NCBI GenBank assembly: GCA_016432365.1
Contig: CP066686.1
Span: 938,918-1,002,917 of the forward strand
Reading direction: 5' to 3'
DNA length: 64,000 nucleotides
DNA from: Candidatus Woesebacteria bacterium
GTDB taxonomy: Bacteria; Patescibacteriota; Microgenomatia; UBA8517
Each line of letters begins with the position of its first letter. The first letter of the stretch is position 1. The position numbers were made by a program, and so were the translations under genes. The notes under the pieces are model-generated. The model saw only the letters and a list, made by a program, of their open reading frames with translations, made no database searches and was not told the origin of the DNA. Below, piece after piece: positions 39,161-58,558 of this stretch.

Positions 39161-39232
39161 GCCCTCGTAGCTCAACGGATAGAGCAGACCCGTCCTAAGG
39201 GTAAGATGGAGGTTCAATTCCCTCCGAGGGCA
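39161..39232 (+). tRNA. tRNA-Arg (anticodon CCT)
   Basis: Cloverleaf by hand: acceptor GCCCTCG/CGAGGGC, D-arm GCTC-AACGGATA-GAGC, anticodon loop GT-CCT-AA, T-arm GGAGGTTCAATTCC(C)TC. TATAAT at ~39081 upstream. Confidence 0.75.
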
Positions 39233-39233
39233 C

Positions 39234-39305
39234 CGGGGTGTAGTGAATCGGTATCACGTTACGTTCGGGACGTAAAGACACTGGGTTCAATTCCCAGCAC
39301 CCCGA
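39234..39305 (+). tRNA. tRNA-Pro (anticodon CGG)
   Basis: Acceptor CGGGGTG/CACCCCG, D-arm GTGA-ATCGGTA-TCAC, anticodon stem TTACG/CGTAA with loop TT-CGG-GA, T-arm CTGGG-TTCAATT-CCCAG; 1-nt spacer from tRNA-Arg. Confidence 0.75.
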
Positions 39306-39327
39306 CAAAAAGTTGTAATATTAGTTT

Positions 39328-39885
39328 ATGCCCCAAACCAAAGCTGGTTACGAGTATCTTCTTGCTTACAAAATCACTGTTCCTATTTACGATTACACCG
39401 TTGAATTCTGTAAAAAATGGATCAACTACCATTCAAGAACTAAAGATCAAATGGAACAGGCCGCCAGAAGCGGCATGCAAAATATTTTAGAGGGTAGTAA
39501 AGAAGAAAGTTTAAAAAGCTATATAAAGCTTGCAGGGGTAGCTCGGGCATCACTTGAGGAACTTTTAAATGATTATTTATCCTACGCCAGACAAAACAAA
39601 ATAGACATTTGGGACGGGTACAAATCTAAAAGGGAGATAAGGGAGATTGGATTGATATGGGAAATAATAAAAAAGACGCCTGTTTTACCTATTCACCCCG
39701 ATTTCCCCAATCTCCCCAATCACCCTGAAATGGCTGTTAACCTAATGGTAACCATAATAAACCAAGCAAATTATTTAATTGATAAACTAATACTTTCTTT
39801 GAAGGAAAAACATATGAAAGAAGGCGGCCTTACAGAGGAACTATATAGAAAAAGAGTTGAATATCGCAAAAAGCACTCAATTTAG
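39328..39885 (+). CDS. four-helix-bundle protein (23S rRNA intervening-sequence protein family)
   Basis: YEYLLAYKITVPIYDYTVEFCKK...ARASLEELLNDY resembles the pfam05635/TIGR02436 family. Confidence 0.5.
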   Translation: MPQTKAGYEYLLAYKITVPIYDYTVEFCKKWINYHSRTKDQMEQAARSGMQNILEGSKEESLKSYIKLAGVARASLEELLNDYLSYARQNKIDIWDGYKSKREIREIGLIWEIIKKTPVLPIHPDFPNLPNHPEMAVNLMVTIINQANYLIDKLILSLKEKHMKEGGLTEELYRKRVEYRKKHSI

Positions 39886-39900
39886 TGTAAAATCCATAAA

Positions 39901-40887
39901 ATGCTAGCCAAGCTTAAACAAAAAATTATCGATAGGACTTCCGGTAAACGCAAAAACGAGACTTCTCCCGAGATCTTCGATGAGTTTAAGTTAAAAACCG
40001 GCAAAAAGAATCAGCTTTTTACTTTTTTTAAACCCGAAGTGTTTTTGAAAAAGACTCCGGATCAGATCGAAAAAATATTAGACTTGGTATTTAAAAAACT
40101 TGAGGAATATGAAGTAAGCGTTGACGGAGCCGCCCTTTTCCCGGGAGCGGCTATAGGCAAATACACAATAATGGATAAGCACTACGGCGTAATTAATACC
40201 CTATCTAAAAATGCCTCCAAAATTCTTAGTAAAGACGAACGTGACTTGGTCTTGAAAACTCTCGGTATAACAAACCCAAATACAAAGATATTGGGCGGGC
40301 ACGAAGCATATGAAATTTCCGGCTTCGGCAAAACTTACGATTTCGACACTTATTGGTTGGAGGCCCCCTCAACAAAAATTAAAAGTGGGTTCTATGTTAG
40401 AAAAATGAAAATTGGAGACGACGAAACTGTTGTCGTAAATGGATTCCATCCCCATCAACTCGCCCACTATACAGAACCGGACAGATTTGTGGGAGCGATG
40501 TTAGTCTCTTCCGATCGTGATTGGTCGGTACTCAGAACCGAGATGTTGGGCGAAACCTTTCCGGATAAAGCTGTACCGGGTTCGATTCGCGGAATGCTAT
40601 ACAAAGATGCAAAAACATATGGATTTGAGACAGTAACGATTGCCAATAACGCTCTACACCTTTCAGCAGGCCCAACCGAAGCGCTATTCGAAATTGACAA
40701 CTTTCTGAACAAGCCATTTGGGATTGATTTTATAAAAGAAGAGGCAAATTTAAGTGCCAAACTTCAAAAAGAAGGTGTTAGTGAAGAAAATATAAGAAAG
40801 ATTATCAACGACAAGGAGATACATTCTCTCTTGGAACATAAAAATACCAGCGAAGCAATTGAACTCATTAAGTCAAAGTTGATATAA
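39901..40887 (+). CDS. divergent, enlarged nucleoside-diphosphate-kinase-like protein
   Basis: N-terminal (QLFTFFKPEVF) and C-terminal (PGSIRGMLY...IANNALHLSAGPTEALFEIDNF) segments parallel NDK (ERTFIMIKPD; PGTIRGDF...N.IHGSDS...A.RE); 328 aa vs ~140 typical. Confidence 0.4.
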   Translation: MLAKLKQKIIDRTSGKRKNETSPEIFDEFKLKTGKKNQLFTFFKPEVFLKKTPDQIEKILDLVFKKLEEYEVSVDGAALFPGAAIGKYTIMDKHYGVINTLSKNASKILSKDERDLVLKTLGITNPNTKILGGHEAYEISGFGKTYDFDTYWLEAPSTKIKSGFYVRKMKIGDDETVVVNGFHPHQLAHYTEPDRFVGAMLVSSDRDWSVLRTEMLGETFPDKAVPGSIRGMLYKDAKTYGFETVTIANNALHLSAGPTEALFEIDNFLNKPFGIDFIKEEANLSAKLQKEGVSEENIRKIINDKEIHSLLEHKNTSEAIELIKSKLI

Positions 40888-41056: not shown

Positions 41057-42361
41057 CTACCGTAAGGTCAAGAGAGCTTCATACTTCTCCCCGTCTTTGT
41101 AAGGCCCGATTATCGCCAAATTCAAGTGGTCTTTAACAAATATCTTTTTAGCCTCCGCTAAAACGTCTTTAATAGTTACCCTATCGATCCTGTCGTATAA
41201 TTCATCCGGAGTTAAAACCTCTTTCAAAAACATTACCTGTTCGGCAAAAAAGTCACCTGCCGCCTGAGTATCCTCCAGGGAAAGCGCAATGTGGCCTTTT
41301 AGATATTCTTTTGTCTTTTCCAGCTCTTTAGAGGAAATTGGAAATTTTTCGTCTGCCAGACCATAGAGCTGATCTAGAATAACTTTAATTGCTTCTTCGC
41401 TCTTACCAACATCTACCCCCGCATAAAACCCTGTATAACCCACCTCGCTGAATTTGTCCCCCGCCGATTTAACGGCGTATGCCAACCCGCGGCGTTCCCT
41501 AACTTCTATAAACAACCTTGAACTCATTGGCCCTGCCAATATTGTAGAAAGTACACTTTGGGCAAAACGTCCCGAATATCCCCTGCCCTCGCTCAAGAAA
41601 CCAAGAATCACATGTGCCTGCTCCACTTTTTTGGTTTTAAGTTCAAACTGTGGCTCAGTCTGTTCTGGTTTGAAATTTTGACTTATATTTTTGACTTTTG
41701 ACTTTTGACTTTTGACTTGATTAAAGTATTTCTCCACCAAATCCACTGCACTTTTCTCTGTTATTCCGCCCGAAACCGATATAAACATATTTTCCGGATA
41801 ATAATGCTTGCCCCGATAAAGTTCAAAATCACTTTTAGTTATACTTTTTACACTTTTCGCATCTCCCCCTATATCCCATCCCAATGAATTTCCCTTAAAA
41901 ATCAATCCTTCGAAAACGTCATGAATTTTTATCATCGGAGTATCCTCATACATCGCAAGTTCCTGAATAATCGTCCCCTTTTCGCGTTCAATTTCTTCAG
42001 ATTTAAGAAGCGGGCTAAGAACCATGTCGCTTAAAACATCCATTGCGGTTTCGACACTCCCTGAACGGGATTTTATATAAAAATTCGTCCAATCTTTACT
42101 CGTTGCCGCGTTAAATTCACCACCGATCGAGTCAACTGCCTCGGAAATCGCTTTCGCGGAAGGCCGCTTGCTACTCCCCTTAAAAACCATGTGTTCAAGG
42201 AAGTGGCTTATTCCGTTTATTCTTTTATCTTCAAACCTGGATCCGGTTTTAACCCACACAGTGACCGTAACCGATTCCAACCCCGGCATAGGGACTGTTA
42301 CCACTGTGAGCCCGCTTTTTAATTTATGAAGTTTGTATTCCATGGGGATAGTATATTGCAT
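41057..42361 (-). CDS. M16-family zinc peptidase (pitrilysin/insulinase-like)
   Basis: HxxEH zinc motif (ISHFLEHMVFKGS) plus downstream E; 434 aa; contains repeat-derived insert KSQKSKVKNISQNFKPEQ. Confidence 0.85.
   Translation of the reverse strand: MQYTIPMEYKLHKLKSGLTVVTVPMPGLESVTVTVWVKTGSRFEDKRINGISHFLEHMVFKGSSKRPSAKAISEAVDSIGGEFNAATSKDWTNFYIKSRSGSVETAMDVLSDMVLSPLLKSEEIEREKGTIIQELAMYEDTPMIKIHDVFEGLIFKGNSLGWDIGGDAKSVKSITKSDFELYRGKHYYPENMFISVSGGITEKSAVDLVEKYFNQVKSQKSKVKNISQNFKPEQTEPQFELKTKKVEQAHVILGFLSEGRGYSGRFAQSVLSTILAGPMSSRLFIEVRERRGLAYAVKSAGDKFSEVGYTGFYAGVDVGKSEEAIKVILDQLYGLADEKFPISSKELEKTKEYLKGHIALSLEDTQAAGDFFAEQVMFLKEVLTPDELYDRIDRVTIKDVLAEAKKIFVKDHLNLAIIGPYKDGEKYEALLTLR
41640..41712. 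repeat. intragenic copy of the TTTTGACTTTTGACTTTTGAC repeat (inside M16 peptidase ORF)
   Basis: ttttgacttatatttttgacttttgacttttgacttttgacttg in-frame within 41057..42361. Confidence 0.55.
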
Positions 42362-42377: not shown

Positions 42378-42890
42378 ATGGCTTCAAATCACAGACATAA
42401 ATCGAGCCAAATAATCAGGAGTTTTGAGGCGGAATCCCTACGCAAGCGGTCCACTATCTCCAAAATCGTGGATTTTCTTACTTCGTATTTCGGTACAATT
42501 GGGTTTCTTGTCGCAAACGCGGCTGTCTATGGAATTTGGATTTTGGGAAATTCAGGAAAAATTCCGGGCTTCCCCACCATCGACCCATACCCCTATTCTT
42601 TCATGAATTCTTTCGTTTCAATTGAGGCGATTATTTTATCTGTAATAGTTCTGATGAGCCAAAACCGGGAAAATCAGCGTGATATTTTACGAAATGAGCT
42701 GGGACTACAGGTTGAATTAATTTCAGAAAAAGAGATCACAAAAATACTCAAAATTCTAAAAGAAATTCGTGCGGAACAGAAGAATTCAAAACCTGATGCG
42801 GAGCTTGAGGAAATGACAAAAGAAATAGACGCAGGGTATATCGAAAGAAAACTGGAGAAGGAACTTACGGAATCGGAAAAACTCACTTGA
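42378..42890 (+). CDS. DUF1003-family membrane protein (paralogue A)
   Basis: Two-TM core FGTIGFLVANAAVYGIWIL...IDPYPYSFMNSFVSIEAIILSVIVLMSQNR; paralogous to 48924..49490. Confidence 0.6.
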   Translation: MASNHRHKSSQIIRSFEAESLRKRSTISKIVDFLTSYFGTIGFLVANAAVYGIWILGNSGKIPGFPTIDPYPYSFMNSFVSIEAIILSVIVLMSQNRENQRDILRNELGLQVELISEKEITKILKILKEIRAEQKNSKPDAELEEMTKEIDAGYIERKLEKELTESEKLT

Positions 42891-43009
42891 CTTAAAACTT
42901 CTATAGGCTTAAACTTCCCTCAAAGTTTACAAAAAAACTTTAACAGTAAAGAGCACCTTTACATCATCAATTTTGATTTTTAATCCACAACCTATGAAAG
43001 GAGGTTGAG

Positions 43010-44623
43010 ATGGAAGAACTGTTACAGAAGTATCTAAAAGGTTTTAGCGGTGTCGATGAGGCTACAGTTGCCCGAATTAGGGATCTTTTGGTTCCTGTTT
43101 CTAATGCCGACAAAATTCTGGTAAGCGCCATCAAAACGAATATGCCACCGAAGGAGTTCGCAGAATGGCTTGACACTAACATCCAGAAGAAATTGGCGGA
43201 AGAAAAGGCAAAACCTGCTCCGGTGACTAAGTCAGCCTCAGGAAACGTTGATTCAACCTCCGAGGCATTGAACGCTTACCTGGCAAAATTCCCGGAGATT
43301 GTTGGAGCAAACAGGGCTCAAATCCGAAGTTTGGTCAGGATGGCAGATCCGGAAGAAGCAATATCAATTTTGGAAACGGCTGCCCTATACAGTGCCTCAC
43401 CAAACGATGTGATGGAACTTTTGAGAAAGGCGCCTCAGCGTCAGCAAGAAAGCGCCCCTCAAGAAGCGGCCGATACCACAAAGGTTGAAGAAACCGAAGC
43501 CAAACCTCAACCAGAAGATGGTGGCAACAAGAGTGTTCAGGTAGCCGAGACTAATGGCAAACGAGGTTGGGGCGGATTCAAACGCGGCAAATCTGCTAAG
43601 AAGACAGACCCCGATCGAAATCAACCTGGACAGCAACAAAGCCCGAAAGCGAAAATCCCGACCTGGGCCACATGGATCGGAGTCGGAATCCTGGTTTTGG
43701 CTGTGTTGGGCGCGATATATTACTACGTCGCCTTTGTCCCCCATCCTCAACGGGCAGAAAACACTGAAACCCTAGGGCCAGCAGCGGTAGTGGAAGCACC
43801 ACCGGTCGTCAATCTGCAGGCAGTAGATTACAAAAGCGTAGCTTTTGTCGGGGTTACTCTGTTTTTTATGTTCATCGCCGGAACGGCTTTGATACCCCTC
43901 GGAATCCTTGATGCCAAAGAACGCCTGCAAGTATCAGACATCAGTGTGGCACTTGGAGGTCTATTCGCAAACTATCTCGCCATCTGGAAACCTTTTGTCG
44001 CATTCTGGACTACGTTGGTTCCGATGTTCAATGAGCAATCCACAGCTGTCCTTTTTGGCATGCTTATTACAGGGATTGTCGTCACAAAAGCAGTGACCGG
44101 AGGACGTGATACAACAAACCTCGGCGTATACTTCGGAGGGTTGGCGATTATTGGAGCAAGCTTAGGAAATATGGGTGCATTCCAGGCAGCTTTCAACATT
44201 CCTTACCAACCGGTATACATGCTCCTGGGAATACCTGCGGCCATCATAGCTAAGCAAACAAGCGCGTTACAATACAGCTTGCTTGTGTATTCGGTACTTT
44301 TCCTGGCCATTGGTGCGTACCTGCTTGACATCGTCTATCCGAGAGAGAAAAAACCCAGATATGGGGCTTTCATTTCCTTTGCCTCGGTTGTTGGAATATA
44401 CTACCTGGCATTACTCAAATTCGATGCACAATACGCCCTACTCTTCGGCATAACCGCCGGAATTCTCGCAGCAGTTCTTGCCCGAAAAGCAGGCACTACA
44501 GAGACTTCAGGTGAAAATAAGCTGACAAAAATTGTTCAGCGTATTTTTGAGTACACCCCTTGGGACGGCGCTTGTCTCGGAATTGTTGTTCTAGTCCTTC
44601 TGCGTTTGGCAGGCATTGCCTAG
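43010..44623 (+). CDS. polytopic membrane protein with duplicated ~55-aa N-terminal cytoplasmic repeat and K/Q/P-rich linker
   Basis: Internal repeat (LQKYLKGFSGVDEATVARIRDLL... vs LNAYLAKFPEIVGANRAQIRSLV...), then ~8 hydrophobic helices. Confidence 0.55.
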   Translation: MEELLQKYLKGFSGVDEATVARIRDLLVPVSNADKILVSAIKTNMPPKEFAEWLDTNIQKKLAEEKAKPAPVTKSASGNVDSTSEALNAYLAKFPEIVGANRAQIRSLVRMADPEEAISILETAALYSASPNDVMELLRKAPQRQQESAPQEAADTTKVEETEAKPQPEDGGNKSVQVAETNGKRGWGGFKRGKSAKKTDPDRNQPGQQQSPKAKIPTWATWIGVGILVLAVLGAIYYYVAFVPHPQRAENTETLGPAAVVEAPPVVNLQAVDYKSVAFVGVTLFFMFIAGTALIPLGILDAKERLQVSDISVALGGLFANYLAIWKPFVAFWTTLVPMFNEQSTAVLFGMLITGIVVTKAVTGGRDTTNLGVYFGGLAIIGASLGNMGAFQAAFNIPYQPVYMLLGIPAAIIAKQTSALQYSLLVYSVLFLAIGAYLLDIVYPREKKPRYGAFISFASVVGIYYLALLKFDAQYALLFGITAGILAAVLARKAGTTETSGENKLTKIVQRIFEYTPWDGACLGIVVLVLLRLAGIA

Positions 44624-44730
44624 CACTAGCGACTCACCCCCGTGAGACAGATATTTCTTACAAAAAAATAAGAAACAATCATCTCACGGGGGCTTACGTA
44701 TCGTTTTTTGTAAATTGGAAGGAGATACAA

Positions 44731-44919
44731 ATGAACTTTATATCGACCCTGAACAGTATCCAGATCTTTTTTCTGGTCACAGGAATTGCATCAGCACTGT
44801 TCGTGGCATACGAAGCGGTACTGGCCATCAAACGACGCGGCGGTGATATGGGTTTGGCTTTGGTTGCCGGACTCCTAGCCCTGGTTTCGCTTTATATGGC
44901 CCTGTTCGTGAAACCGTAA
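44731..44919 (+). CDS. small membrane protein (62 aa)
   Basis: GGAAGGAG RBS 6 nt upstream of ATG 44731; two hydrophobic helices. ORF-track ORF 44560 is likely 5'-overextended. Confidence 0.45.
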   Translation: MNFISTLNSIQIFFLVTGIASALFVAYEAVLAIKRRGGDMGLALVAGLLALVSLYMALFVKP

Positions 44920-44938
44920 GTTTTGCAAGGAGGTAGAA

Positions 44939-45775
44939 ATGATTCCTAAATTCAAAATCAGTGAACGAGGAAATATCCAACAAGGATTCCTTGTCATTCT
45001 GCTTATTGCGATTGTGGTATTTGTCATCATATCCCTTTTCGGCGCATATGCTGTAAACACCACCGTCGTTCTGGAAGAAATTGAGAGGGAAAAAACAATG
45101 GGGATCCTAATTCAGATCCCGAGTTCAAGTTTGCCACCCGAACTGAAGATCGATAAACGCGGAGTTGATCAATATGTGATCTTCAAATATTTTTCGATCG
45201 TCGGAGACGGTGTCGAAATCCCCGGTGACCAAGAATACGCGGCCGCTTACGCCACCAATACAGAACTGACAACTCTGGATTGCGGTGACCAAATCACCTC
45301 AGTTGGTATCATTTCCAAGGCTTTTGAGCCGGAAATCGGTGCAGCCGAAGCCGGTGCCAAGGTAAGCATTATGATTCTGGGAGCCAGAGCCATAACAAAC
45401 GGCGGATGCGAAGTTGGGCCACTGGTAAGAAATCCATTGTACGATGAGAATTTCGAACCCTATGCCGCTTACCCTTCCATCTGGAACATTCCGGGGTGCC
45501 TCCTACGTGTATGGACTGCTCCCGGTATTTACAGGGAAAGTTCTTGCCTTGAGGGCGGATATCGTCCAACATTAAATTGGCAGCGCATAGGTGCAATCGA
45601 TATCCCGAACGGTCAGGGCTTATTCCGTCTCGTTGCGGCAGATAACGGCCTTTGGATGCATGCGATTAGCACCATTGACCTAAATCAGATCTACAATACC
45701 TACAACGTTGATGGAACGATTAAGGAAAAGATCGAAAACATTCTACAAAAGGTATTTGGAGGAAGTTCACAATGA
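44939..45775 (+). CDS. membrane-anchored secreted hypothetical protein
   Basis: AGGAGG RBS; N-terminal TM anchor, Cys-containing extracellular domain. Confidence 0.5.
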   Translation: MIPKFKISERGNIQQGFLVILLIAIVVFVIISLFGAYAVNTTVVLEEIEREKTMGILIQIPSSSLPPELKIDKRGVDQYVIFKYFSIVGDGVEIPGDQEYAAAYATNTELTTLDCGDQITSVGIISKAFEPEIGAAEAGAKVSIMILGARAITNGGCEVGPLVRNPLYDENFEPYAAYPSIWNIPGCLLRVWTAPGIYRESSCLEGGYRPTLNWQRIGAIDIPNGQGLFRLVAADNGLWMHAISTIDLNQIYNTYNVDGTIKEKIENILQKVFGGSSQ

Positions 45776-46233
45776 CTCAGAATAACCAAAACCAACAACC
45801 GGCCAAGAAAGAGCCAAAGGTCATCATTTTCGTGACCCTGATGGCCATCGTGGCGGTTGCTATTTTCGGCAGTGCTGCTGGCAGGATCGTCGCATACGCA
45901 CTCTGTGCAGTATTTCTTGGCGCCTTGGGATACGGTACTTACCGGTTTTTCAGCCAGGACGTCAAGTACTACGTCGGAATTCCGCTTGTTGCGGCCCTTT
46001 TGGGTTTCGCATTCGGAGCCTTTGAAGATGCAGGCAAGTACGGTGCCAGGATCGGCGGATCTTTCCAGTCGATCGCGTGGCTTCTGCTTTGTCCTGTTAT
46101 CTTTGTGGTCTTTGGCATCGCATTCCGCTGGTTTCAAAAGAACCAGAGTAAGATCGACGAAAAGATCAACAATGGCCTGGAAGAGCTTGACCGCGGTCTT
46201 GACAAAATTGTCGATCAGATCAAGCTTAAGTGA
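45772..46233 (+). CDS. 4-TM membrane protein
   Basis: ATGA overlap with upstream gene; four hydrophobic helices; followed by terminator. Confidence 0.5.
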   Translation: MTQNNQNQQPAKKEPKVIIFVTLMAIVAVAIFGSAAGRIVAYALCAVFLGALGYGTYRFFSQDVKYYVGIPLVAALLGFAFGAFEDAGKYGARIGGSFQSIAWLLLCPVIFVVFGIAFRWFQKNQSKIDEKINNGLEELDRGLDKIVDQIKLK

Positions 46234-46254
46234 TTTGTAAATTTGTGAGTACTT

Positions 46255-46306
46255 ACCGCTCGTTGCACACCTTAATAGTGAAAAAGCAACGGGCGGTTTT
46301 TCTTTG
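46255..46306 (+). terminator. rho-independent terminator
   Basis: ACCGCTCGTTGC ... GCAACGGGCGGT stem then TTTTTCTTTG. Confidence 0.55.
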
Positions 46307-46392
46307 CCCATCGAAGCTCGAAGAGCAAAGTTGGGTTTGGAAAAACCCCCTCGCTTGACAAAAAACGCCTATAGGGTTATTATTCGCACGTC

Positions 46393-47568
46393 ATGACAGC
46401 CGAACGCACAAACGACTCCGAAACTAGTGATCTACCTCTTCCTGAGGTGTATAAAAACGTCCCCAGAATTCCAAAAACTGAATCTGCGATTACCACCGTC
46501 CAGCAAATCGAGGGCGAAGTTGTCGAAGACGAAAATCAAAAACCGGACCGCGCCAGAGCAGCCCATGACGCAATTCTTAAAACAAGACATATCCTTTCTA
46601 CTGCCATAAGAGGCGCAGATGAAGAAACAACGCAAATGGTTAGGTCCATTCTCCAAGAAAGATTAGAACAGGAACAGATTGAGGCGATGGATGCCACAGA
46701 CAGAACAATATTTGTGTCACTTAAAGAACAGGTCGTTAACGTAAATGAAGCTCTAACCGATTTTTACGGAACTCCAACTTCAATTTTGATGCTTTACAGC
46801 TACGAATCAGAAAAAGACCCCCAGACATACCCCCCATTAGATACGGCAAATGGGATTAAAGGGATGTTAAGGCTTCACAGAGATTTGTATCAAGAAATTG
46901 CATCGGCCCCCGTAATTGCTAGTGAGTTGGCTGAAGCCAAAACACAGACGGCCATTATTCCTGCTCAAAAAGACGTAAAAATATTAAGAATTGACGCGGA
47001 AAGAGAAGTGGCCGAAAAGTTTTCTCTGGCAGCTGACTCCCTCAAAAAAGCGGCCAGCGATCGCGCTGCTGTTCGAAGCGCACATATTAGAGGAGCAGCG
47101 GAAACAATATCAACAGCCGTCGGTGAAGCTCCCGTTCAAATAGCAAGATCCTTTGCCGACAAGCTCGGCGAATGGATAAAAACAAGCGATGACGCAATGG
47201 GAACCGTATCTTTTATGGGCGGTGCCGTTGCCGGACCTTTGGCGTTAATTATTGAAGGCCCCGCTCTTTCACCGATTCTCGCTACTTGGATTTCTACTTG
47301 GCCTTGGGGAACGGCCACGGCAGTTGGATTTGGAGCATTAGGCGGAGCGATAGGAGGGTTTGTTACTTGGAAAGCAATCAGATTTGCCGCCGAATATAGT
47401 TGGAGTGTTGTACAAAATGTTTGGGAATCCATAGAACAAAAACTGGGTGAATGGGGCGAAAAGATTGGTAATTCCAAGTTGTTTAGCGGGAAAAAGGACC
47501 AAACAAATCACAACCAAAACCAGAATAACAGAGGTAAAGGCAATAACAGGACGGACCACGAAGCATAA
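46393..47568 (+). CDS. hypothetical protein with C-terminal Gly-zipper TM hairpins
   Basis: Acidic/coiled N-terminal region, C-terminal GGAVAGPLALIIEG...GFGALGGAIGGFVTW hydrophobic segments, N/Q-rich tail. Confidence 0.5.
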   Translation: MTAERTNDSETSDLPLPEVYKNVPRIPKTESAITTVQQIEGEVVEDENQKPDRARAAHDAILKTRHILSTAIRGADEETTQMVRSILQERLEQEQIEAMDATDRTIFVSLKEQVVNVNEALTDFYGTPTSILMLYSYESEKDPQTYPPLDTANGIKGMLRLHRDLYQEIASAPVIASELAEAKTQTAIIPAQKDVKILRIDAEREVAEKFSLAADSLKKAASDRAAVRSAHIRGAAETISTAVGEAPVQIARSFADKLGEWIKTSDDAMGTVSFMGGAVAGPLALIIEGPALSPILATWISTWPWGTATAVGFGALGGAIGGFVTWKAIRFAAEYSWSVVQNVWESIEQKLGEWGEKIGNSKLFSGKKDQTNHNQNQNNRGKGNNRTDHEA

Positions 47569-47788
47569 TCTTCTTTTTGACACTTCTTCATTCTTGCAAT
47601 CCCTCAAAAATAATCCTATAGCAAACTCAAAACAAAATGAAGGTTTGCAATTTTATGTTTTGAGTTTGGTATATAGAAATTCTATGCTTGCCAAACAAAT
47701 GTCAGTTTTGACATTTGTTTTAACATGGCTATATAATCCCCCTGCAACTTAACATTACCCTGAAAAGGAAATCAAAAAGGAGAGTTCC

Positions 47789-48235
47789 ATGCCTACAATC
47801 AATATTGTCCAGTTAATAATTGGGGTTCTGATTATGGTAATTTCCGCGGCCGCACTTGTATGGTTCTTTATGTGGAATTGGTGCCAACAGAAGCAAGCAA
47901 AACTGATAGCGGAACAGAAACGCGCGTTACTGAAAAAAAATCCAATTTCCTTCGGCCTCAATTATTTCTTTGCCGGAAACGACAGGATCGAAGCCGTTGT
48001 CACCGACGTTGACTATGAAGCCGGAGAGTTATCTATCGACGTCACCTTGCATGTAGCAGATGACGACACCATCCTAAGTGCCCCGGATGACAGTGATTTG
48101 AGCAATGTCAGACTGCCTGTAAAGCACTTCGACGGAACAATCGAAACATTGTCGTTTGACCTTGTAAATGACAGGCCTGCCGCCTTTAACGGATGGGAAA
48201 TTGTAATAGATGATGTTCTCGCCAAAGCCGGTTAG
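47789..48235 (+). CDS. N-terminally anchored hypothetical protein
   Basis: AAAAGGAGAG RBS; TM helix then acidic soluble domain. Confidence 0.5.
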   Translation: MPTINIVQLIIGVLIMVISAAALVWFFMWNWCQQKQAKLIAEQKRALLKKNPISFGLNYFFAGNDRIEAVVTDVDYEAGELSIDVTLHVADDDTILSAPDDSDLSNVRLPVKHFDGTIETLSFDLVNDRPAAFNGWEIVIDDVLAKAG

Positions 48236-48272
48236 GCCGCCCGTCCACATATAACAGAAAAGGAGAAACAAT

Positions 48273-48848
48273 ATGTGTTTCAATGACTCGTTCTGCATCA
48301 ACGGTTTTCAAATAACCGTGGCCGTTTTGATCATCCTCGGAATCTGCTACTGGCTGTACCGCAAGGTGTCGAAACCAGAGCCGGGGTTTATTACGTTCGA
48401 TGAGCTTGCCCCTCAAATAACTGAAGCTCCCCCACCTCAACCTGAGGAGGAAGAACTTGAAGAGGAAGCGCCTGTTGAAGAGGAACCCGAAGAGGAGGAA
48501 GAACTTGAAGAGAAAGAAGAACCGACTTTTAAAGAAGGTGACGAAATCTTATTCAATGAAAAGTCTGGGTTCCAAGTGGTCTTTGTCGTCGAGTTGTTCA
48601 ACAGCGATGAGGATGAGATTCAAGGTCCGCTTGTGGTAAGGTATCCGCAAGGCATCGAAATCGTGGATGTCGACTACGTTGAAAGTTACGATGAATCTGA
48701 TGTGATTCACGTCAAATTCAAAAAGAACGGACACCTGTCAGATATCGACTTCGAAGTCGACAATCCTGTAGACGAAGATGACCTGAACGGTTGCTCGTTT
48801 GTTGTTAACTATGCAACATCCGAACCGCTACCGTTAGCCGACAGTTAA
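48273..48848 (+). CDS. N-terminally anchored acidic (Glu-rich) hypothetical protein
   Basis: AAAAGGAGAA RBS; TM helix; EEEELEEE low-complexity stretch; followed by terminator. Confidence 0.5.
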   Translation: MCFNDSFCINGFQITVAVLIILGICYWLYRKVSKPEPGFITFDELAPQITEAPPPQPEEEELEEEAPVEEEPEEEEELEEKEEPTFKEGDEILFNEKSGFQVVFVVELFNSDEDEIQGPLVVRYPQGIEIVDVDYVESYDESDVIHVKFKKNGHLSDIDFEVDNPVDEDDLNGCSFVVNYATSEPLPLADS

Positions 48849-48858
48849 TTTAAACCAA

Positions 48859-48918
48859 AGACCAGCGCAATTCACCCACAAGGTGATTCCTATTCATAGG
48901 ACGCTGGTCTGTTTTTTT
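48859..48918 (+). terminator. rho-independent terminator
   Basis: AGACCAGCG ... CGCTGGTCT stem (with inner TCACC/GGTGA hairpin) then GTTTTTTT. Confidence 0.55.
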
Positions 48919-48923
48919 GGTTA

Positions 48924-49490
48924 TTGCCAACCACAAAAGCCTGGGTTTACAATCCAAGAATGCCCACGGACCACGTAAAATCCAGTCACCATTTAATTCA
49001 AAGTTTTGAAGCAGATCAGCTTAAGAACCGTCCAAAATTCATACAAATTGCAGACCGGTTAACTCTTTTGTTTGGAAGTATCAGTTTTTTTATACTTAAT
49101 GCCCTGCTTTTTATTGTCTGGATCGCAATCAACACAGGATTTGTCCCATTTGTACCGGTCTTTGACCCCTACCCTTTTATTCTTTTGACTATGTTTGTCT
49201 CGCTCGAAGCAATTTTTCTTTCCATAATCGTCCTTATGAGTCAAAACAGACAAGGGCACATTTTTACTTTAAGAGAAGAGCTGGATATGCAAGTTAACCT
49301 CCTGGCAGAACGCGAAATAACCATGTCACTAAAAATCCTAAAACTAATGGCCAGCAAAATGGGAATAAAGATCAGGAACGAGGAATTGGGAGAAATGGTT
49401 AAAGAAACCGATATTTCTTATATTCAAAGGGAAATCCAGGAACAAATTCAGGAAAGAACCAGGCTTTCCAGAAAGTTAGGTAAGAAATAG
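48924..49490 (+). CDS. DUF1003-family membrane protein (paralogue B)
   Basis: FGSISFFILNALLFIVWIAIN...FDPYPFILLTMFVSLEAIFLSIIVLMSQNR; same architecture as 42378..42890. Confidence 0.6.
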   Translation: MPTTKAWVYNPRMPTDHVKSSHHLIQSFEADQLKNRPKFIQIADRLTLLFGSISFFILNALLFIVWIAINTGFVPFVPVFDPYPFILLTMFVSLEAIFLSIIVLMSQNRQGHIFTLREELDMQVNLLAEREITMSLKILKLMASKMGIKIRNEELGEMVKETDISYIQREIQEQIQERTRLSRKLGKK

Positions 49491-49784: not shown

Positions 49785-51542
49785 TCACATCTTCTCAGGA
49801 GCGTCAATCCCTAATAGCTGAAGCCCATTCTTAAGCACTTGACCCGTTCCTGCAGTTAGTGCGAGTCTGAAATTCCCCACTTCTTCGTTCTTCGTTTTTC
49901 CTTCTTCGCTTATTATTCTATTATGCGCGGGGCCTAAGGCTTCGTCTTTCGTGCGCTCGTCATTTGTATTCAAAATCCTATTGTGAGCGTAAAAAGTGTT
50001 GAATTTTGAAGCTAAATCATATAAATAGTTGCACAAAAGATTGGGTGAGTAACTTTTGGCTGCATTGGCAATTACCTCGGAAAATCGGGACAAAGCTCTT
50101 AAAACGGTCAGCTCTTCTATTTCTAATTTTATATTATTCGCATATTCGCTCATTCGCTTATTTGAAGCCTTTGCGAGCACGGAATTAGTTCGAGCAACTG
50201 TATATTGCAGATAGGGCCCGGAATTGCCTTCCAGGGAAATGCTTTCCTTAAGATCAAATGAGATGTCTTGCGCAAGACCTGTCTTTAAAAATGAATATTT
50301 AACTGCGCCTACTGCTATCATTTCTGCCACGCCATCTTCGGTTTTATACGCTTTTTTGATTGACTCCTTGGCGTCATCAAGTATTTTTTCTCCAAGAACC
50401 ACATTGCCGGTCCTTGAACTCATTTTCCCCTCTTTCAGACGAACCCAACCATATGGAACATGGAACTCCCTGCCTTTTGTTTCCGGCTCTATAAACTCCA
50501 AAGCTTTGAAGATCACTTGAAAATACGCGCTTTGTTCTGGACCAACAGTGTGAATCAGTTTGTCGGGATTGTATTCAGAAAACTGAAGCTTTGCCAAACC
50601 CAAATCTTTGGCCTCATAGGTTGGAACACCTTTACCTGAAATAAAAACCCTGTCATGCAAGCCATATTCACTGCCGGGGAAAATAATTGCGCCCTCGCTT
50701 TCTTTTAAAATCCCTTTTTTAAGAGCTTCCAAGGCAATTTCTTTACCCTTTTGGTAGACTTCGCTCTCAAAATAAAATCTATCAAACTTCGTATAGACTC
50801 TTTTATATATTTCGGCAAAATAATCCAAACTCCATTGTCTTGTCTCGGAATACAATTTATTTATTTCATCATCGCTCTTATCATAAATAATGCCATTTAT
50901 GACATGAATTTCTTCTTTGGCTTTTTCATCAATTTCATAGGCACTTGAGCCTGTCGAATACGCCTTGCCTAAATACTCAGCCCGTTTTTTAACATCTTTT
51001 GGGTCATCAAAACCAATTCTTTTAATTCCCCATAACGCCTTTGCTATATGGAGACCAACGTCGCCCTGATAATTTGCCCGTACAACTTCTGCCCCGTTTG
51101 CCTCGTAAAGCCTAGCCAATGTTTCACCTGTTGTTATGTTTCTAAGGTGGCCTATATGAAAAGCTTTATGAGTATTGGGGTGAGCATACTCAAACATTAT
51201 TTTTTGACCTTTAAGAGAATCACTTGTGCCATATTTTTCTTTTTCCTCTTCAATCTGCATCAAATTACTAACTAGGACATCAGTTTTTAGCCAAAAATTA
51301 ATAAAACCCGGGCCGGCAACTTCAATTTTGTCTACAAATTTTGATAGTTCGGGAGATTGGGATAATTTGGATTTTATTTCTTCCGCAAGCGCCCTTGGAT
51401 TCTTGCCTTCGCTTTTTGCCATGATTAGCGCAATATTGCACGAGTAGTCGCCGAAATTTGGATTCTCGGTGAATTCCAAACTAACCACCTTTTCCCCCGA
51501 CACTTCCGTTAACACATTTATTATTCGGTCTTTAATCGACAT
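49785..51542 (-). CDS. argS: arginyl-tRNA synthetase
   Basis: Class I motifs HIGH (FHIGHLRN) and KMSK (KMSSRTG), ArgRS N-terminal add-on domain, 585 aa. Confidence 0.9.
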   Translation of the reverse strand: MSIKDRIINVLTEVSGEKVVSLEFTENPNFGDYSCNIALIMAKSEGKNPRALAEEIKSKLSQSPELSKFVDKIEVAGPGFINFWLKTDVLVSNLMQIEEEKEKYGTSDSLKGQKIMFEYAHPNTHKAFHIGHLRNITTGETLARLYEANGAEVVRANYQGDVGLHIAKALWGIKRIGFDDPKDVKKRAEYLGKAYSTGSSAYEIDEKAKEEIHVINGIIYDKSDDEINKLYSETRQWSLDYFAEIYKRVYTKFDRFYFESEVYQKGKEIALEALKKGILKESEGAIIFPGSEYGLHDRVFISGKGVPTYEAKDLGLAKLQFSEYNPDKLIHTVGPEQSAYFQVIFKALEFIEPETKGREFHVPYGWVRLKEGKMSSRTGNVVLGEKILDDAKESIKKAYKTEDGVAEMIAVGAVKYSFLKTGLAQDISFDLKESISLEGNSGPYLQYTVARTNSVLAKASNKRMSEYANNIKLEIEELTVLRALSRFSEVIANAAKSYSPNLLCNYLYDLASKFNTFYAHNRILNTNDERTKDEALGPAHNRIISEEGKTKNEEVGNFRLALTAGTGQVLKNGLQLLGIDAPEKM

Positions 51543-55142: not shown

Positions 55143-55349
55143 ACTTGACTCCAAGGCCCGACTTGATATAATACCCACTATAGGTTACTAGCCTTAATTT
55201 GTTGAAAGGACCTTAAAATGAGGAATAAGAATCGTCCAAAATGGGCAGTAATTTTTTTGCTGTCAGTGATTTTTTGTTTAATCGTTTTAATTGCAACGGT
55301 ACTAAACCCTCTTGCATATTATGTTTTCAATCGCTGAAAGGAGCGAAAA

Positions 55350-55709
55350 ATGAAAAAGAAAGTTTTTTTGATTTTGATCGTGTTTATTGCCTTAACCGCC
55401 TGCGCACCCAAAGCTGTAAATTCGACTGCCGTTGAAGCACCCAAGCCATCTGAATATACAAACCTTGAGGCCACCGTCTTTATTGGCAACTACTGGCAGG
55501 GGGCTTGCGGGGATTCGTGGATGATCTTTGTACAGGCATCGGATTCAGGAAGTGTAACGCTTCTTGAGGGGAATCCCAACGTCAGCCTTGTTGCAATCCC
55601 ACGCAAAGCGCCAGGCGCTTTTTTCTCAGGATGTAAATTCATCCGAGTTGTTCCCAACGAACAAGCCGGCAACGGAGACTGGAAAGTAAAAATTTACGGC
55701 TTGCCGTAA
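55350..55709 (+). CDS. lipoprotein (signal peptide + lipobox LTAC)
   Basis: MKKKVFLILIVFIALTAC; AAAGGAG RBS. Confidence 0.55.
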   Translation: MKKKVFLILIVFIALTACAPKAVNSTAVEAPKPSEYTNLEATVFIGNYWQGACGDSWMIFVQASDSGSVTLLEGNPNVSLVAIPRKAPGAFFSGCKFIRVVPNEQAGNGDWKVKIYGLP

Positions 55710-55718
55710 AAAAATTCA

Positions 55719-55760
55719 AGAAGAACTGAAGGGAAACCCCTTTCTTTCAGTTCTTCTGCT
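55719..55760. terminator. bidirectional hairpin terminator between convergent genes
   Basis: GAAGAACTGAAGG ... CTTTCAGTTCTTC stem; flanked by A-run and T-run. Confidence 0.5.
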
Positions 55761-55794
55761 TTACCTCGCCGAAGTCTTGACGAAGGCGGGTCCC

Positions 55795-56628
55795 CTACTT
55801 TCCAATCCAATACTTCTCGCCATCTGTCGAAACAATAACATCACCACCCATATCAGTTCTCAATACTCTTATGTTATATTTACCTAACAAGTCCAATATT
55901 TCTTTGTGTGGATGGCCGTAAATATTATTCTTTCCGACACTAATTACCGCAACTTGAGGATATAATGCTTTTACAAGCATTTCGGACAGACCATTCTTGC
56001 TTCCATGATGATTCACTTTGAGATAGTTAACCCCTTCGACTTCGCCCAGGGCTGATAGCCCATCACTAATTTTGTTTTCAACATCCGCTGTAAAAATAGC
56101 CTTGAATTTGCCAAATTTAAGCAGATCCACAACGCCAATATTATTTGCATTGGGATCACTGAATCCACTATCCGGATTAAGTATATCTAAATATATCATT
56201 CCTACCCTGAGTACCTGACCTGTATGTGGCCTTATGACCTTTGTACCACTACCCCCCACCTCTTTCTTTAGCACTTGATAGTCAACACTGCCAGATTCAA
56301 CATTGTTATACAAAAAATTGTCCACTTTATATCTTTTAAAGACTTCTATTAGCCCAAAATAATGATCTTTCTGTGGATGGGTTGAAATTGCAAGTTCTAT
56401 CTCTCGGTCCCAAAATGGAACATGCTTACTAAGACATTCCAGAACTCTGTTGTTTGGTCCGCCGTCGGTTAAAATTTGAATATTCTTATAAATAACAAGG
56501 ATTGCGTCCCCCTGCCCCACATCACAAGCGACTATGTGTAAATACCCATCCGGCAACTGAAATATTGCCATTACAATTACCGATAAAATTAAAATTAAAG
56601 TTATATAGAGATATTTCCAAATTTGCAT
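55795..56628 (-). CDS. ComEC/Rec2 C-terminal metallo-beta-lactamase-fold domain protein (separate gene)
   Basis: MBL motifs (ACDVGQGDA, STHPQKDH, VNHHGSKNG); own N-terminal TM. Confidence 0.7.
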   Translation of the reverse strand: MQIWKYLYITLILILSVIVMAIFQLPDGYLHIVACDVGQGDAILVIYKNIQILTDGGPNNRVLECLSKHVPFWDREIELAISTHPQKDHYFGLIEVFKRYKVDNFLYNNVESGSVDYQVLKKEVGGSGTKVIRPHTGQVLRVGMIYLDILNPDSGFSDPNANNIGVVDLLKFGKFKAIFTADVENKISDGLSALGEVEGVNYLKVNHHGSKNGLSEMLVKALYPQVAVISVGKNNIYGHPHKEILDLLGKYNIRVLRTDMGGDVIVSTDGEKYWIGK

Positions 56629-56629
56629 A

Positions 56630-56735
56630 ATTCAAAAGTCAAAATTTAGAAATCAAAAATACAAGTTAGAAGTAAAAATACAAACTTTTGACTTTTTACT
56701 TGAAATTTTGAGTTTTGACTTTTACCTTTTGACTT
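56630..56735. repeat. dispersed TTTTGACTTTT repeat block between the two ComEC genes
   Basis: caaaagtcaaaatttagaaatcaaaaatacaagttagaagtaaaaatacaaacttttgactttttacttgaaattttgagttttgacttttaccttttgactt. Confidence 0.6.
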
Positions 56736-57807
56736 AGCTAAATAGTTCTACTATTCTCACAAACCACCACAAAAGTGAATAGCTTAACCAAAGTATTATT
56801 TTACCGAAAAATGGCATGACAAGTCCGACAACCCCACCTACGCTTCCCAAAATCATAATATAGGGAATCGTCCAAAGAACTAGGGCGTTAATTAAAGGAG
56901 ACCATATATTAAACTGTCCAAATGTAACAAACAATATCGGGGCTACACCGATTTGAGCTGCCAAAGATGTAGAAAGTCCTTCTCTAAGTAAACTGGGGAT
57001 CTTAAGTAACTTTGAATTGATTCTTTTTTCAAAAAGCATAAGTGAGGCCGTTGAAACAAAAGACAATATAAAACCAATGTCGGTTATCCAACTTGGGTTA
57101 TATACAAGCATTGCCCCAGCTGTCAGGAACAAGATCCGCATTGTAGACACCATCCGCCCAGTTCCCTGCCCCAAAAAAATAATAGAAGACATTATAGCTG
57201 CCCTCACGAGCGGTGCATCAAAACCCGACACAAAGAGATACAAAATAATACCTAATATAGCAAACACTATCGCTTTTCTTCTGGTTAAGTACAATGTAAG
57301 AACTCCCATCAAAAAAGATACAACGAAAGTTATGTTGGTTCCTGATGCAACTACAACATGGGCCACTCCTGCAAGTTTTGTCTGATTATAAAAATCCGGT
57401 GAAAGCGCCCCCTTGGACCCAATTACAATTCCGCCCAATAGACCCCCTTCCGGCTCCGGTAAAGCCTTTTGATAAAAAGAAATTATGTTGTTTCGAAATA
57501 GCGATGTAAAACTTTTTGAAGGACTGGTACTTATTAATTTTGGATCCTCTAATTTTCCGCTGCCGACAACTCCCTCAACAACAATTTTATCGCCGTATGA
57601 TATTTCCGGAAAAAGCGGGAGCTTAATTTTTAGTCCGGTAACTTTTAAATATTGCCCGGTGGAATAACGGACCGGGTCGGACAGTATTGTGGTAGTTATA
57701 CGGACCCGGTCGCCAATATGGTAAACGGGGCGGGTTGTGAAATATCTAAAAATAATTAGAAAGATTAATAGAAACCAAATTAAGTATTTCATTAAGTCAA
57801 AAATCAA
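56734..57807 (-). CDS. ComEC/Rec2 N-terminal membrane competence domain protein
   Basis: Polytopic; ...LAGVAHVVVASGTNITFV... resembles ComEC competence domain. Confidence 0.7.
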   Translation of the reverse strand: MIFDLMKYLIWFLLIFLIIFRYFTTRPVYHIGDRVRITTTILSDPVRYSTGQYLKVTGLKIKLPLFPEISYGDKIVVEGVVGSGKLEDPKLISTSPSKSFTSLFRNNIISFYQKALPEPEGGLLGGIVIGSKGALSPDFYNQTKLAGVAHVVVASGTNITFVVSFLMGVLTLYLTRRKAIVFAILGIILYLFVSGFDAPLVRAAIMSSIIFLGQGTGRMVSTMRILFLTAGAMLVYNPSWITDIGFILSFVSTASLMLFEKRINSKLLKIPSLLREGLSTSLAAQIGVAPILFVTFGQFNIWSPLINALVLWTIPYIMILGSVGGVVGLVMPFFGKIILWLSYSLLWWFVRIVELFS

Positions 57808-57905
57808 AATTTAGAAGTCAAAAATACAAGTTAAAATTTAAAATTGTAACTACTTTTGCCTTTTGAATTGTAATTTTGAATTTTGATTTTTGCATTTTAA
57901 ATTAT
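57790..57905. repeat. dispersed TTTTGA repeat block between ComEC-N and ComEA
   Basis: agtcaaaaatcaaaatttagaagtcaaaaatacaagtt...ttttgaattgtaattttgaattttgatttttgcatttt; first half nearly identical to the start of block 62790. Confidence 0.6.
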
Positions 57906-58558
57906 TAGTAAACACTTATTTTATCTTTAATCTTTTCGTACAAACTTTGTTTAATAGCCCCCTTGGATACCAATTCTTCTGTAGTTGAGTACGGTCTGTG
58001 TTCAATTATGTTTTGGCCGTATACTTGGCCAATTCCGGGTAACGAGTCCAGTTGATTGAGGCTTGCGGTGTTGATGTTTATTAATGTGTTACTATCGGAT
58101 GAAAAAGTGGATGATGTAGTTTGATCCCCACCACCAGTTTTAGCAATCGTTTCATTTGACTGCTGATTGGCGTTGGGTATGTACACCTTTTGTCCGTCTG
58201 TTAGTTTTGCGGCGCGGTTTAAATATTTATCTGTCCAAACTCTGTCGGCATTAACAGAAAACCCATTGGAAATAACTAAAAGATCTTCAATACGACTATC
58301 ACCGGGGAGTTTATAAACTCCGGGTTTTACTACTTCTCCTGCAATTTCCACTATTATCTCCCCGACTGTTGAGTTATCCGTACTTCCACTTAGAACTTCT
58401 ACTTTTGTCGATGGAGATACCAGTCCGCTTTTAAAAAAGAAAACCCCAGCGCCAGTGGCGATTAACCCCCCGAGAAATATTAAAAGAGGATAACGAAAAC
58501 GGTTTAACAGTTCATCGATATTGAAGCTGTGCATTACTAAACTATACACCAAAATCAA
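57905..58558 (-). CDS. comEA: ComEA DNA-binding competence protein (TM + SLBB + helix-hairpin-helix)
   Basis: C-terminal INTASLNQLDSLPGIGQVYGQNIIEHRPYSTTEEL HhH motif. Confidence 0.8.
   Translation of the reverse strand: MILVYSLVMHSFNIDELLNRFRYPLLIFLGGLIATGAGVFFFKSGLVSPSTKVEVLSGSTDNSTVGEIIVEIAGEVVKPGVYKLPGDSRIEDLLVISNGFSVNADRVWTDKYLNRAAKLTDGQKVYIPNANQQSNETIAKTGGGDQTTSSTFSSDSNTLININTASLNQLDSLPGIGQVYGQNIIEHRPYSTTEELVSKGAIKQSLYEKIKDKISVY

Follow-up and report, generated by a model that had tools for sequence, protein, structure and literature searches.

A candidate replacement-type variable locus encoding membrane proteins between the M16 peptidase and arginyl-tRNA synthetase genes of Candidatus Woesebacteria

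A block of seven genes (positions 43010-48848, hereafter the island) was analysed in a 64-kb stretch of DNA, the window, from Candidatus Woesebacteria, an uncultured groundwater bacterium of the Candidate Phyla Radiation (CPR, or Patescibacteria). In the reading that we modestly favour, the island is a replacement-type variable locus that homologous recombination has diversified and that encodes a membrane module. It occupies a slot between an M16-family peptidase gene and the arginyl-tRNA synthetase (ArgRS) gene, and no larger version of this slot was found. A regulatory frame of promoters, terminators and ribosome-binding sites, together with a few conserved genes, would remain fixed, and within this frame single gene bodies or domains would be exchanged for very different alleles. 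The exchange would likely occur by homologous recombination among Woesebacteria lineages, with no integrase involved and with no recombination between the two DUF1003-like genes that flank the island. The products would probably form an inner-membrane assembly with most soluble parts in the cytoplasm, and the turnover of alleles may point to biotic conflict, either with phage or with the cell that hosts this bacterium, which is probably episymbiotic.

An original prediction, made from the sequence of the window, had listed nine plus-strand open reading frames (ORFs) in this region, and all nine were present at the positions and with the lengths it gave. The two outermost, DUF1003a and DUF1003b, match PF06210, so the predicted pair of DUF1003-like genes around a block of plus-strand genes was borne out. 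We refer to the seven inner proteins by their length in amino acids (aa) as i537, i62, i278, i153, i391, i148 and i191. They were predicted to be membrane proteins throughout. In both hydropathy tests, six of the seven indeed have a clear, uncharged hydrophobic stretch resembling a transmembrane (TM) segment, and the signal in i391 is a single weak stretch. None of them has a meaningful match in Pfam, NCBIfam, PHROGs or PADLOC, and none matches a PDB sequence.

We determined how the slot is occupied in relatives of the window. It is bounded by two conserved anchor genes on the minus strand, the M16 peptidase gene on the left (41057-42361; the Pfam domains Peptidase_M16 and M16_C are recorded for its orthologues) and the ArgRS gene on the right (49785-51542). 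A profile of the M16 peptidase was used to retrieve 80 metagenome loci, in which the M16 protein is 58-73% identical to that of the window. The identity is 62% for L002 (metagenome-assembled genome DeMMO6_57) and 85% for L008 (GW2011_GWB1_39_10), the nearest relative, with a backbone about 79% identical at the nucleotide (nt) level. In roughly 70 related loci that carry both anchors, the gap between them ranges from 5 bp to 5.8 kb, and the 7.4 kb of the window is the largest found. The majority of these slots are empty or hold one DUF1003 gene; L002, which has the closest relative of the window ArgRS, has a single DUF1003 gene and no island. The junction of M16 and ArgRS is thus a fixed position between core genes that is variably occupied. 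As for the variable island of the original prediction, the block is absent or much smaller in most of these loci, and conserved synteny of all seven genes was not found in distant relatives.

Part of the slot content is nevertheless old. A DUF1003 gene, a gene of the i537 family and a small ORF with two TM segments occur together in L008, L025, L027, L031, L038 and L054, as well as in the distant locus L102. The P0002 contigs carry DUF1003 followed by an i537-family gene, and L033 has the i537-family gene and the small ORF without DUF1003. The DUF1003, i537 and i62 families therefore represent an old, conserved neighbourhood and are long-standing residents of the slot. To these, the window and one relative add the membrane-associated genes i278, i153, i391 and i148 and a second DUF1003 gene, with i191 found in the window only. 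Both i278 and i148 are confined to the window type and the L008 type of island.

Comparison with L008 revealed a mosaic. L008 shares with the window the promoters and terminators, i278, both DUF1003 genes and the C-terminal part of i148, whereas the bodies of i537, i62, i153 and i391 and the anchor segment of i148 cannot be aligned at the nucleotide level. For i62 and i391 there is no protein similarity to the positional counterparts in L008 either, and different or non-homologous genes thus occupy equivalent positions. Similarity ends within a few bases of the start codons and resumes at the next terminator, promoter or ribosome-binding site. Intergenic DNA of the island aligns with L008 at 85-97% identity, whereas backbone intergenic DNA (55143-58751, between well-conserved genes) is not alignable. 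Synonymous divergence (dS) from L008 is 0.34 for i278, the lowest of the 12 genes compared and about four-fold below the backbone median, and 0.57 for the i148 C-terminus; in ten backbone genes it ranges from 0.68 to 2.2. The two DUF1003 genes are 87% (DUF1003a, with a backbone-like dS of 1.7) and 90% (DUF1003b, dS 0.92-0.97) identical to L008 at the protein level.

Exchange also appears to act on domains. The TM domain of the window i537 has no BLAST similarity to that of L008, where M16 is 85% identical, and only the N-terminal domains are related (28-34%). The L008 TM domain belongs to a second subfamily and is 30-33% identical to those of L025, L031, L054 and L033. P0001 is a chimera in which an L008-like N-terminus is joined to a window-like TM domain, the latter 78% identical to that of the window.

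Could these differences have arisen in place? CPR genomes are rich in fast-evolving unknown membrane proteins, and the seven genes could be ordinary, lineage-specific examples, inherited vertically, with a mosaic that merely reflects unequal rates. The TM domain of the window i537 is 59% identical to that of L038, near the 62% of M16, and i153 retains 30% aa identity to its positional counterpart L008_162, although the gene body lacks nucleotide similarity. Unequal rates would have to account for the sharp fall of similarity at start codons next to intergenic DNA of 85-97% identity where backbone intergenic DNA cannot be aligned, and for the four-fold lower dS of i278. They would also have to account for the fusion, in L008, of a different TM-domain subfamily to a related N-terminal domain, for the P0001 chimera, and for unrelated genes at one position: where the window has i391, L008 has a non-hydrophobic 285-aa gene (L008_285). 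We therefore regard purely vertical descent as unlikely.

Mosaicism extends into the right anchor. The window ArgRS, which assigns the organism to Candidatus Woesebacteria, is 72% identical to that of L002 and 54% to that of L008, the opposite of the pattern of M16 (62% and 85%). The 3' 105 nt of the gene are 93% identical to L008, while the middle is not alignable. ArgRS is thus mosaic relative to L008 and phylogenetically discordant with its neighbour M16. The L008 ArgRS is an 869-aa protein with an N-terminal B3_4 fusion.

As all sequences are metagenome-derived, strain mixing during assembly or binning might create such patterns. An identical 12.9-kb stretch of the window is present on a public metagenome contig, and both island types recur in independent assemblies: the window type on three contigs with an identical protein set, and the L008 type on 17 contigs from several projects and samples with constant gene order. 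The ORFs are intact and have proper ribosome-binding sites. Since both types recur unchanged in independent assemblies, the mosaic is not an assembly artefact, an explanation that we consider barely credible.

The island was also predicted to be richer in GC than the surrounding DNA, and this was confirmed. Its GC content is 0.464, compared with 0.414 for the window. Mean GC per gene is 0.474 in the island versus 0.411 (Mann-Whitney p 5e-7), GC at third codon positions (GC3) is 0.497 versus 0.390 (p 9e-5), and no other run of seven genes in the window exceeds a GC of 0.428. Composition along the window is thus not uniform. The 18 other window genes with TM-like segments have an ordinary mean GC of 0.412, so the shift is not a side-effect of membrane-protein composition.

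The original prediction took this shift, together with the paralogue bracketing, as a sign of horizontal acquisition or duplication. As a mark of recent foreign import, the shift does not survive the comparison with relatives. Of the nine other lineages measured, eight have a slot richer in GC than its flanks: L008 (0.463 in the slot, 0.400 in the flanks), L027 (0.450, 0.402), L033 (0.460, 0.410), L031 (0.516, 0.426), L054 (0.483, 0.425), L025 (0.471, 0.439), L026 (0.420, 0.388), L102 (0.442, 0.428) and, marginally, L038 (0.430, 0.418). Locus L100, where an i537-family gene lies in a different context, shows the reverse (0.449 versus 0.489). Because the excess is common to the slot in most lineages measured, high GC does not mark recent import from a GC-richer donor; it is a standing property of the module or its gene pool. 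One possible cause is GC-biased gene conversion in a region prone to recombination. Of the predicted horizontal acquisition, what persists are signs of lateral allele exchange among Woesebacteria, and not a recent foreign import or a mobile island.

We next consider the two DUF1003 genes. DUF1003a (42378-42890, plus strand, 170 aa, PF06210 E-value 5.3e-24) and DUF1003b (plus strand, E-value 4.2e-28) score 84.8 and 98.0 bits, respectively, against a gathering score of 27.4 bits, and both matches span positions 1-99 of the 103-position profile. Each copy has two hydrophobic segments, predicted to be TM segments, and the DPYP...SQNR core is visible in their pairwise alignment; with a C-terminal coil, these features agree with the DUF1003 family. 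The longest ORF of DUF1003b runs from TTG 48924 to 49490, the extent given in the original prediction. This ORF is present, but its true start is most likely ATG 48960 (176 aa), in agreement with the public gene call (176 aa) and with the alignment to DUF1003a. ATG 48960 lies 6 nt downstream of a promoter-like site (TTGCCA-18-TACAAT, 48924-48953).

The two copies are 44% identical over 170 aa and 52% identical in codon-aligned nucleotides, and their longest exact common word is 12 nt. A neighbour-joining tree of the DUF1003 proteins in the slot has two old clades, with the left copy of the window in clade a and the right copy in clade b. Each clade is the sole resident copy in some other lineages, and in L025 a b copy and an a copy stand in tandem with nothing between them. 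A recent tandem or segmental duplication of DUF1003 was rejected given the 52% nucleotide identity and the placement in different old clades. A third and more divergent type, c, comprises proteins of 145-149 aa. Its members share 75-80% identity with one another and about 25-28% with clades a and b; they fill the slot in L026 (9000-9437, adjoining a clade-b copy), L040 (9528-9977), L054 (4416-4853) and L102 (1267-1713).

These data bear on the core of the original prediction, namely that the island is a horizontally acquired or duplicated envelope island, with DUF1003 paralogues that mark the insertion and recombine for excision or exchange. A pair in the same orientation does flank a GC-richer block, and L002, the closest relative by ArgRS, is island-free with a single DUF1003 gene. 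However, with their low nucleotide identity and a longest shared word of 12 nt, the copies fall below any usable recombination substrate, so they do not offer a route for homologous excision. They belong to two old clades that each occur alone elsewhere, and the L025 tandem exists without an island between. The GC excess in eight of nine other lineages, the long residence of the DUF1003, i537 and i62 core in the slot, and the missing integrase, attachment-site (att) repeats and adjacent tRNA (see below) add to this. We consider such an island very improbable.

No integrase or recombinase gene was found in the block by Pfam, NCBIfam, PHROGs and PADLOC scans. There are no att-like direct repeats; the flanks share one direct repeat only, 26 nt long and 77% identical. 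Nor is a tRNA adjacent to the block, the closest ones lying 3 kb upstream (39161-39306). Searches of viral contigs, phage genomes and plasmids returned no relatives of the block. The locus shares with integrase- or tRNA-associated islands and prophage remnants a compositional contrast to the flanks and a patchy presence among relatives, but an integrative genomic island or prophage remnant was ruled out by the lack of integrase, att repeats, adjacent tRNA and phage or plasmid homologues. A diversity-generating retroelement was also rejected, as the alleles differ in length and lack residual similarity. Within the window, we found no paralogues of block genes, and a possible paralogy of i148 and i191 was rejected.

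The largest island protein, i537 (43010-44623, plus strand), is the founding member of a small uncharacterised family. Its N-terminus is built of two helical repeats (residues 1-65 and 81-140), which a disordered linker connects to a domain with about nine TM helices (218-537). A HMMER search of 1.84 billion representatives identified 49 clusters (50% identity) at E ≤ 1e-3, 31 of them at E ≤ 1e-10. Iterative profile searches found members in L038 (433 aa), L027 (444 aa), L033 (409 aa), L008 (409 aa), L054 (316 aa), L031 (334 aa) and L025 (313 aa), besides P0001-P0004. A third homologue search, with an 11-sequence profile, gave nothing beyond four proteins that were already at hand. When 51 members were scanned with Pfam and NCBIfam, no model matched the TM domain, and the weak matches were limited to N-terminal zinc ribbons and the linker. 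R305, D367, P401 and D519 are invariant in a family alignment of 11 sequences (A2); in one of 51 sequences (A5), D367 is the only invariant position, with conservation of 90% or more at P265, D301, D310 and D519.

An AlphaFold2 (AF2) model of i537 based on the 51-sequence alignment has a mean predicted local distance difference test score (pLDDT) of 81, with values above 90 over residues 280-537; with five sequences, the pLDDT of the TM domain had been 47. The model shows two N-terminal four-helix repeats, the disordered linker and about nine TM helices. Foldseek searches with it returned no PDB or BFVD match, and PDB sequence and profile searches with A2, A5, i278, i391 and DUF1003a found none either. 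Positive-inside counts on the modelled helices point to a topology with the N-terminus inside and the C-terminus outside. D301, R305, D310, D367 and W518-D519 are predicted to cluster at the cytoplasmic membrane face, which would suggest that a cation or substrate binds here, as happens in transporters or membrane-embedded enzymes. An internal duplication of the TM domain was rejected (hhalign probability of 2.9% for the two halves), as was a presenilin or prepilin-peptidase GxGD identity, the Gly residues not being conserved in the second subfamily.

Directly downstream, i62 (44731-44919, plus strand) encodes 62 aa with two predicted TM segments. Small membrane ORFs of 48-88 aa follow the family gene in L008, L025, L027, L031, L033, L038, L054, L100, L102 and the P0004 contig. 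In the distant locus L102, the gene at this position likewise encodes 62 aa and shares 39% identity with i62 (E-value of 2e-5). A distant i537-family member, P0023, is about 24% identical and lies in the order DUF1003, 535 aa, 62 aa, three small ORFs and ArgRS, with 39% identity between its 62-aa neighbour and i62. A domain of about nine TM helices with D301, R305, D310, D367, P401 and W518-D519, followed by a small two-TM ORF, characterises the family. To our knowledge, no earlier work describes the close linkage of DUF1003 to an i537-family gene and to the M16/ArgRS junction.

Some relatives carry what may be traces of the family. ORFs of 111-134 aa in L021 (1840-2175), L024 (8933-9271) and L040 (8940-9344, minus strand) start with AEAA(R)QRFLA, the N-terminal motif of the short i537 subfamily, and in L021 and L024 the conserved hairpin known from downstream of i537 follows the ORF. 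They look like decayed i537-family remnants, which suggests repeated loss of the module from the slot. In L100 (1252-3387 and 3488-7453), an i537-family gene (502 aa, with an N-terminal zinc ribbon) lies away from DUF1003 and ArgRS and adjoins a 711-aa Wzy_C (O-antigen-ligase-like)/TPR protein and a 500-aa unknown protein.

The remaining island genes differ widely in conservation. The best conserved, i278 (44939-45775, plus strand), is 90% identical to L008 in amino acids and 89-90% in nucleotides, and its only other homologue cluster is P0005. By the positive-inside rule, it is predicted to have an N-terminal anchor and an extracytoplasmic domain of about 235 aa, which holds four Cys residues. 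The adjoining i153 (45772-46233, plus strand) has four hydrophobic segments and a predicted cytoplasmic coiled tail. Next, i391 (46393-47568, plus strand) consists of an acidic helical N-terminal region of about 265 aa, predicted to be cytoplasmic, a Gly-rich hydrophobic C-terminal hairpin and a basic tail. Its only homologue is a 409-aa gene in the same slot of L026 (28-30% identity, E-value of 6e-38).

In i148 (47789-48235, plus strand), an N-terminal TM anchor precedes a 114-aa domain. The domain is 83% identical to L008 in amino acids and 86% in nucleotides (dS 0.54-0.57), and the anchor segment is replaced. No Lys or Arg precedes the TM segment and five follow it, so the domain is predicted to be cytoplasmic. 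Finally, i191 (48273-48848, plus strand) has no homologue in any fetched locus and is absent from L008. In this protein, an acidic, EEEE-rich linker joins a TM anchor to a domain of about 100 aa. Its linker carries a short GAGGAGGAAGAA tandem repeat (family D1). At the DNA level, a short imperfect tandem repeat (GAGGAGGAAGAACTTGAAGAG...) at 48444-48516 encodes the acidic EEEELEEE linker and could be a site of length variation in i191. A type IV pilin-like identity for i278, i148 and i191 was rejected: by inspection, the N-termini lack the class III signal motif (short basic leader, then G|F/M and Glu at +5), there being no Glu at +5, and there was no pilin match in Pfam, the check consisting of these two steps and no dedicated pilin predictor.

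Taken together, the predictions place i148, i191, the tail of i153 and the long N-terminal region of i391 on the cytoplasmic side, and only i278 would expose a large domain outside. The surface complex of the original prediction is therefore overstated.

Transcription and translation signals supported the original prediction in part. Of its strong AAGGAG-type ribosome-binding sites, AGGAG-type sites precede six of the seven inner genes, i391 being without one. The predicted ATGA couplings come down to one, at 45772-45775, where the start of i153 overlaps the stop of i278; there are no others. Both predicted terminators are canonical, a hairpin followed by a T-run. The first, downstream of i153 (46255-46306, plus strand), has a 12-bp GC-rich stem followed by TTTTTCTTT and is kept in L008 (alignment A8). 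The second, downstream of i191 (48860-48920, plus strand), has a folding free energy (dG) of -28.4 kcal/mol (z -5.5) and a stem followed by GTTTTTTTGG.

Two more strong hairpins, without an adjacent T-run, lie downstream of i537 and i391. The former (44637-44692, plus strand; inverted repeat I2, dG -29.3 kcal/mol, z -7.0) is probably a terminator or an RNA-stability element. It is kept in L008 and, with stem changes, also in L021 and L024, two loci with an M16 identity of about 65%. The latter (47617-47673, plus strand; repeat I3, dG -20.2 kcal/mol, z -4.1) has 21-nt arms that are 90% complementary. A sigma-70-like promoter, TTGACA-17-TATTAT (46355-46383, plus strand), ends 9 nt upstream of the i391 start codon and is kept in L008. 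Upstream of i148 is a promoter of perfect consensus (TTGACA-18-TATAAT, 12/12; 47708-47737, plus strand). With several promoters and terminators or hairpins inside, the block comprises at least four transcription units and is not one operon. At i391 (46355-46395) and DUF1003b (48924-48962), a distance of 6-9 nt separates the end of the -10 element from the ATG, and a Shine-Dalgarno sequence is missing; both genes appear to be leaderless.

An anti-phage hotspot or a polymorphic toxin/immunity cassette could also take the form of a variable slot between core genes whose presence is patchy and whose alleles turn over quickly. In such a system, variable membrane proteins such as i391, with its Gly-rich C-terminal hairpin, might be the effectors and the small membrane proteins immunity proteins or partners. 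The several independent promoters, the domain-level shuffling in i537 and P0001, and the variable parts predicted to be cytoplasmic or intramembrane would suit it. The organisation also loosely recalls VARTIG, a hypervariable gene module of Thermococcales (Makarova et al. 2021, PMC8416519). Like VARTIG and polymorphic-toxin-like loci, the island is lineage-restricted and has a large upstream protein with recombination-shuffled domains and combinations of small genes downstream (PMC8416519). Unlike VARTIG, it has no immunoglobulin (Ig), toxin or immunity domains, its large protein is polytopic, and the module is tied to DUF1003 and to one chromosomal slot. No toxin, immunity, secretion or defence domain was matched in Pfam, NCBIfam, PHROGs, PADLOC or PDB sequence searches, and the link to type VII secretion, holin or immunity families raised by the original prediction found no match in the first four. 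Genes for a nuclease, ATPase, protease or secretion component are missing from the block. Even relatives at 20-25% identity share the core module and its context, which is unusual for defence cassettes. A dedicated conflict system is therefore rather improbable.

The closest likeness for the replacement-type locus that we favour is with replacement flexible genomic islands (Lopez-Perez, Martin-Cuadrado and Rodriguez-Valera 2014, PMC4033161). These share a fixed site between core genes, non-alignable genes of the same kind and a lack of mobility genes, and their exchange is attributed to homologous recombination through conserved flanks, as we propose here. Three differences stand out. Replacement here proceeds gene by gene or domain by domain within a conserved regulatory frame and not as a whole-island swap. 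The products are not known surface-structure genes (O-antigen, S-layer or pilus), and their variable parts are predicted to be mostly cytoplasmic. Lastly, the genomes compared here differ at the species or genus level (about 79% nucleotide identity) and not at the strain level.

Several points weigh against this reading. The hypervariable parts, predicted to be cytoplasmic, do not fit the classical surface-receptor rationale of replacement islands. None of the seven inner proteins has a family, structure or literature link. Selection at synonymous sites could contribute to the low dS of i278, and backbone dS is itself variable (0.68-2.2). Island haplotypes that carry i278 number only two, and recombination is read from their mosaic and dS and not from a population sample. 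Finally, divergence from L038 is about the same for the i537 TM domain of the window as for M16, so this i537 allele may have been inherited vertically, with replacement only in the L008 lineage.

A more ambitious reading is that the DUF1003, i537 and i62 families form an undescribed membrane machine of Woesebacteria or CPR, and that the locus undergoes integrase-free cassette exchange, with promoter/terminator linkers as homology anchors for the swapping of single genes or domains between lineages. The core of the machine would be the confidently modelled nine-TM protein, which has no solved analogue in the Foldseek searches and whose conserved acidic site is predicted at the cytoplasmic face. 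We put this forward tentatively, as a possibility that is rather doubtful at present. If true, the locus would be one of strain individuality or conflict in ultra-small episymbiotic bacteria.

CPR account for much of bacterial diversity, yet their membrane proteome is largely unannotated, and their episymbiotic lifestyle probably depends on envelope proteins. Variable replacement islands are well known; new here are the occurrence in CPR, the replacement of genes and domains within a conserved frame, the uncharacterised families and the variable parts predicted to be mostly cytoplasmic. The locus would provide an example of recombination-driven single-gene replacement in CPR, which bears on strain-level diversity in tiny genomes. 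A module with a fixed genomic address also gives the widespread, uncharacterised DUF1003 family a conserved genomic partner in these bacteria. In the searchable literature, a clue to the function of DUF1003 comes only from SAN_2180 of group B Streptococcus, a member under CiaR regulation that is linked to stress tolerance (PMC4839699). As a polytopic protein that is modelled confidently and has no Foldseek match among solved or viral structures, i537 is a candidate for structural and functional study.

Other genes of the window deserve mention. Upstream of the island, a tRNA-Arg(CCT) and a tRNA-Pro(CGG) at 39161-39306, the only matches in an Rfam scan, are followed by a four-helix protein of the 23S_rRNA_IVP family (39328-39885) and by a 328-aa ORF without a Pfam match (39901-40887). 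The latter is absent from L008, where a nucleoside-diphosphate kinase gene adjoins M16. This is another small variable spot, 1-3 kb left of the island. A 1434-aa protein (23355-27659, plus strand) combines an N-terminal MerR/HTH_17 domain (residues 6-53) with a C-terminal Peptidase_S74 domain (1245-1297, E-value of 4e-16), an odd pairing, as Peptidase_S74 is an intramolecular chaperone typical of phage tail-spike and endosialidase proteins. The GC content at second codon positions (GC2) of its gene is unusually high (0.49). The most GC-rich gene outside the island belongs to the Bax1-I/YccA family (10910-11578, plus strand; PF01027, E-value of 1e-20), with a GC of 0.49 and a GC3 of 0.58.

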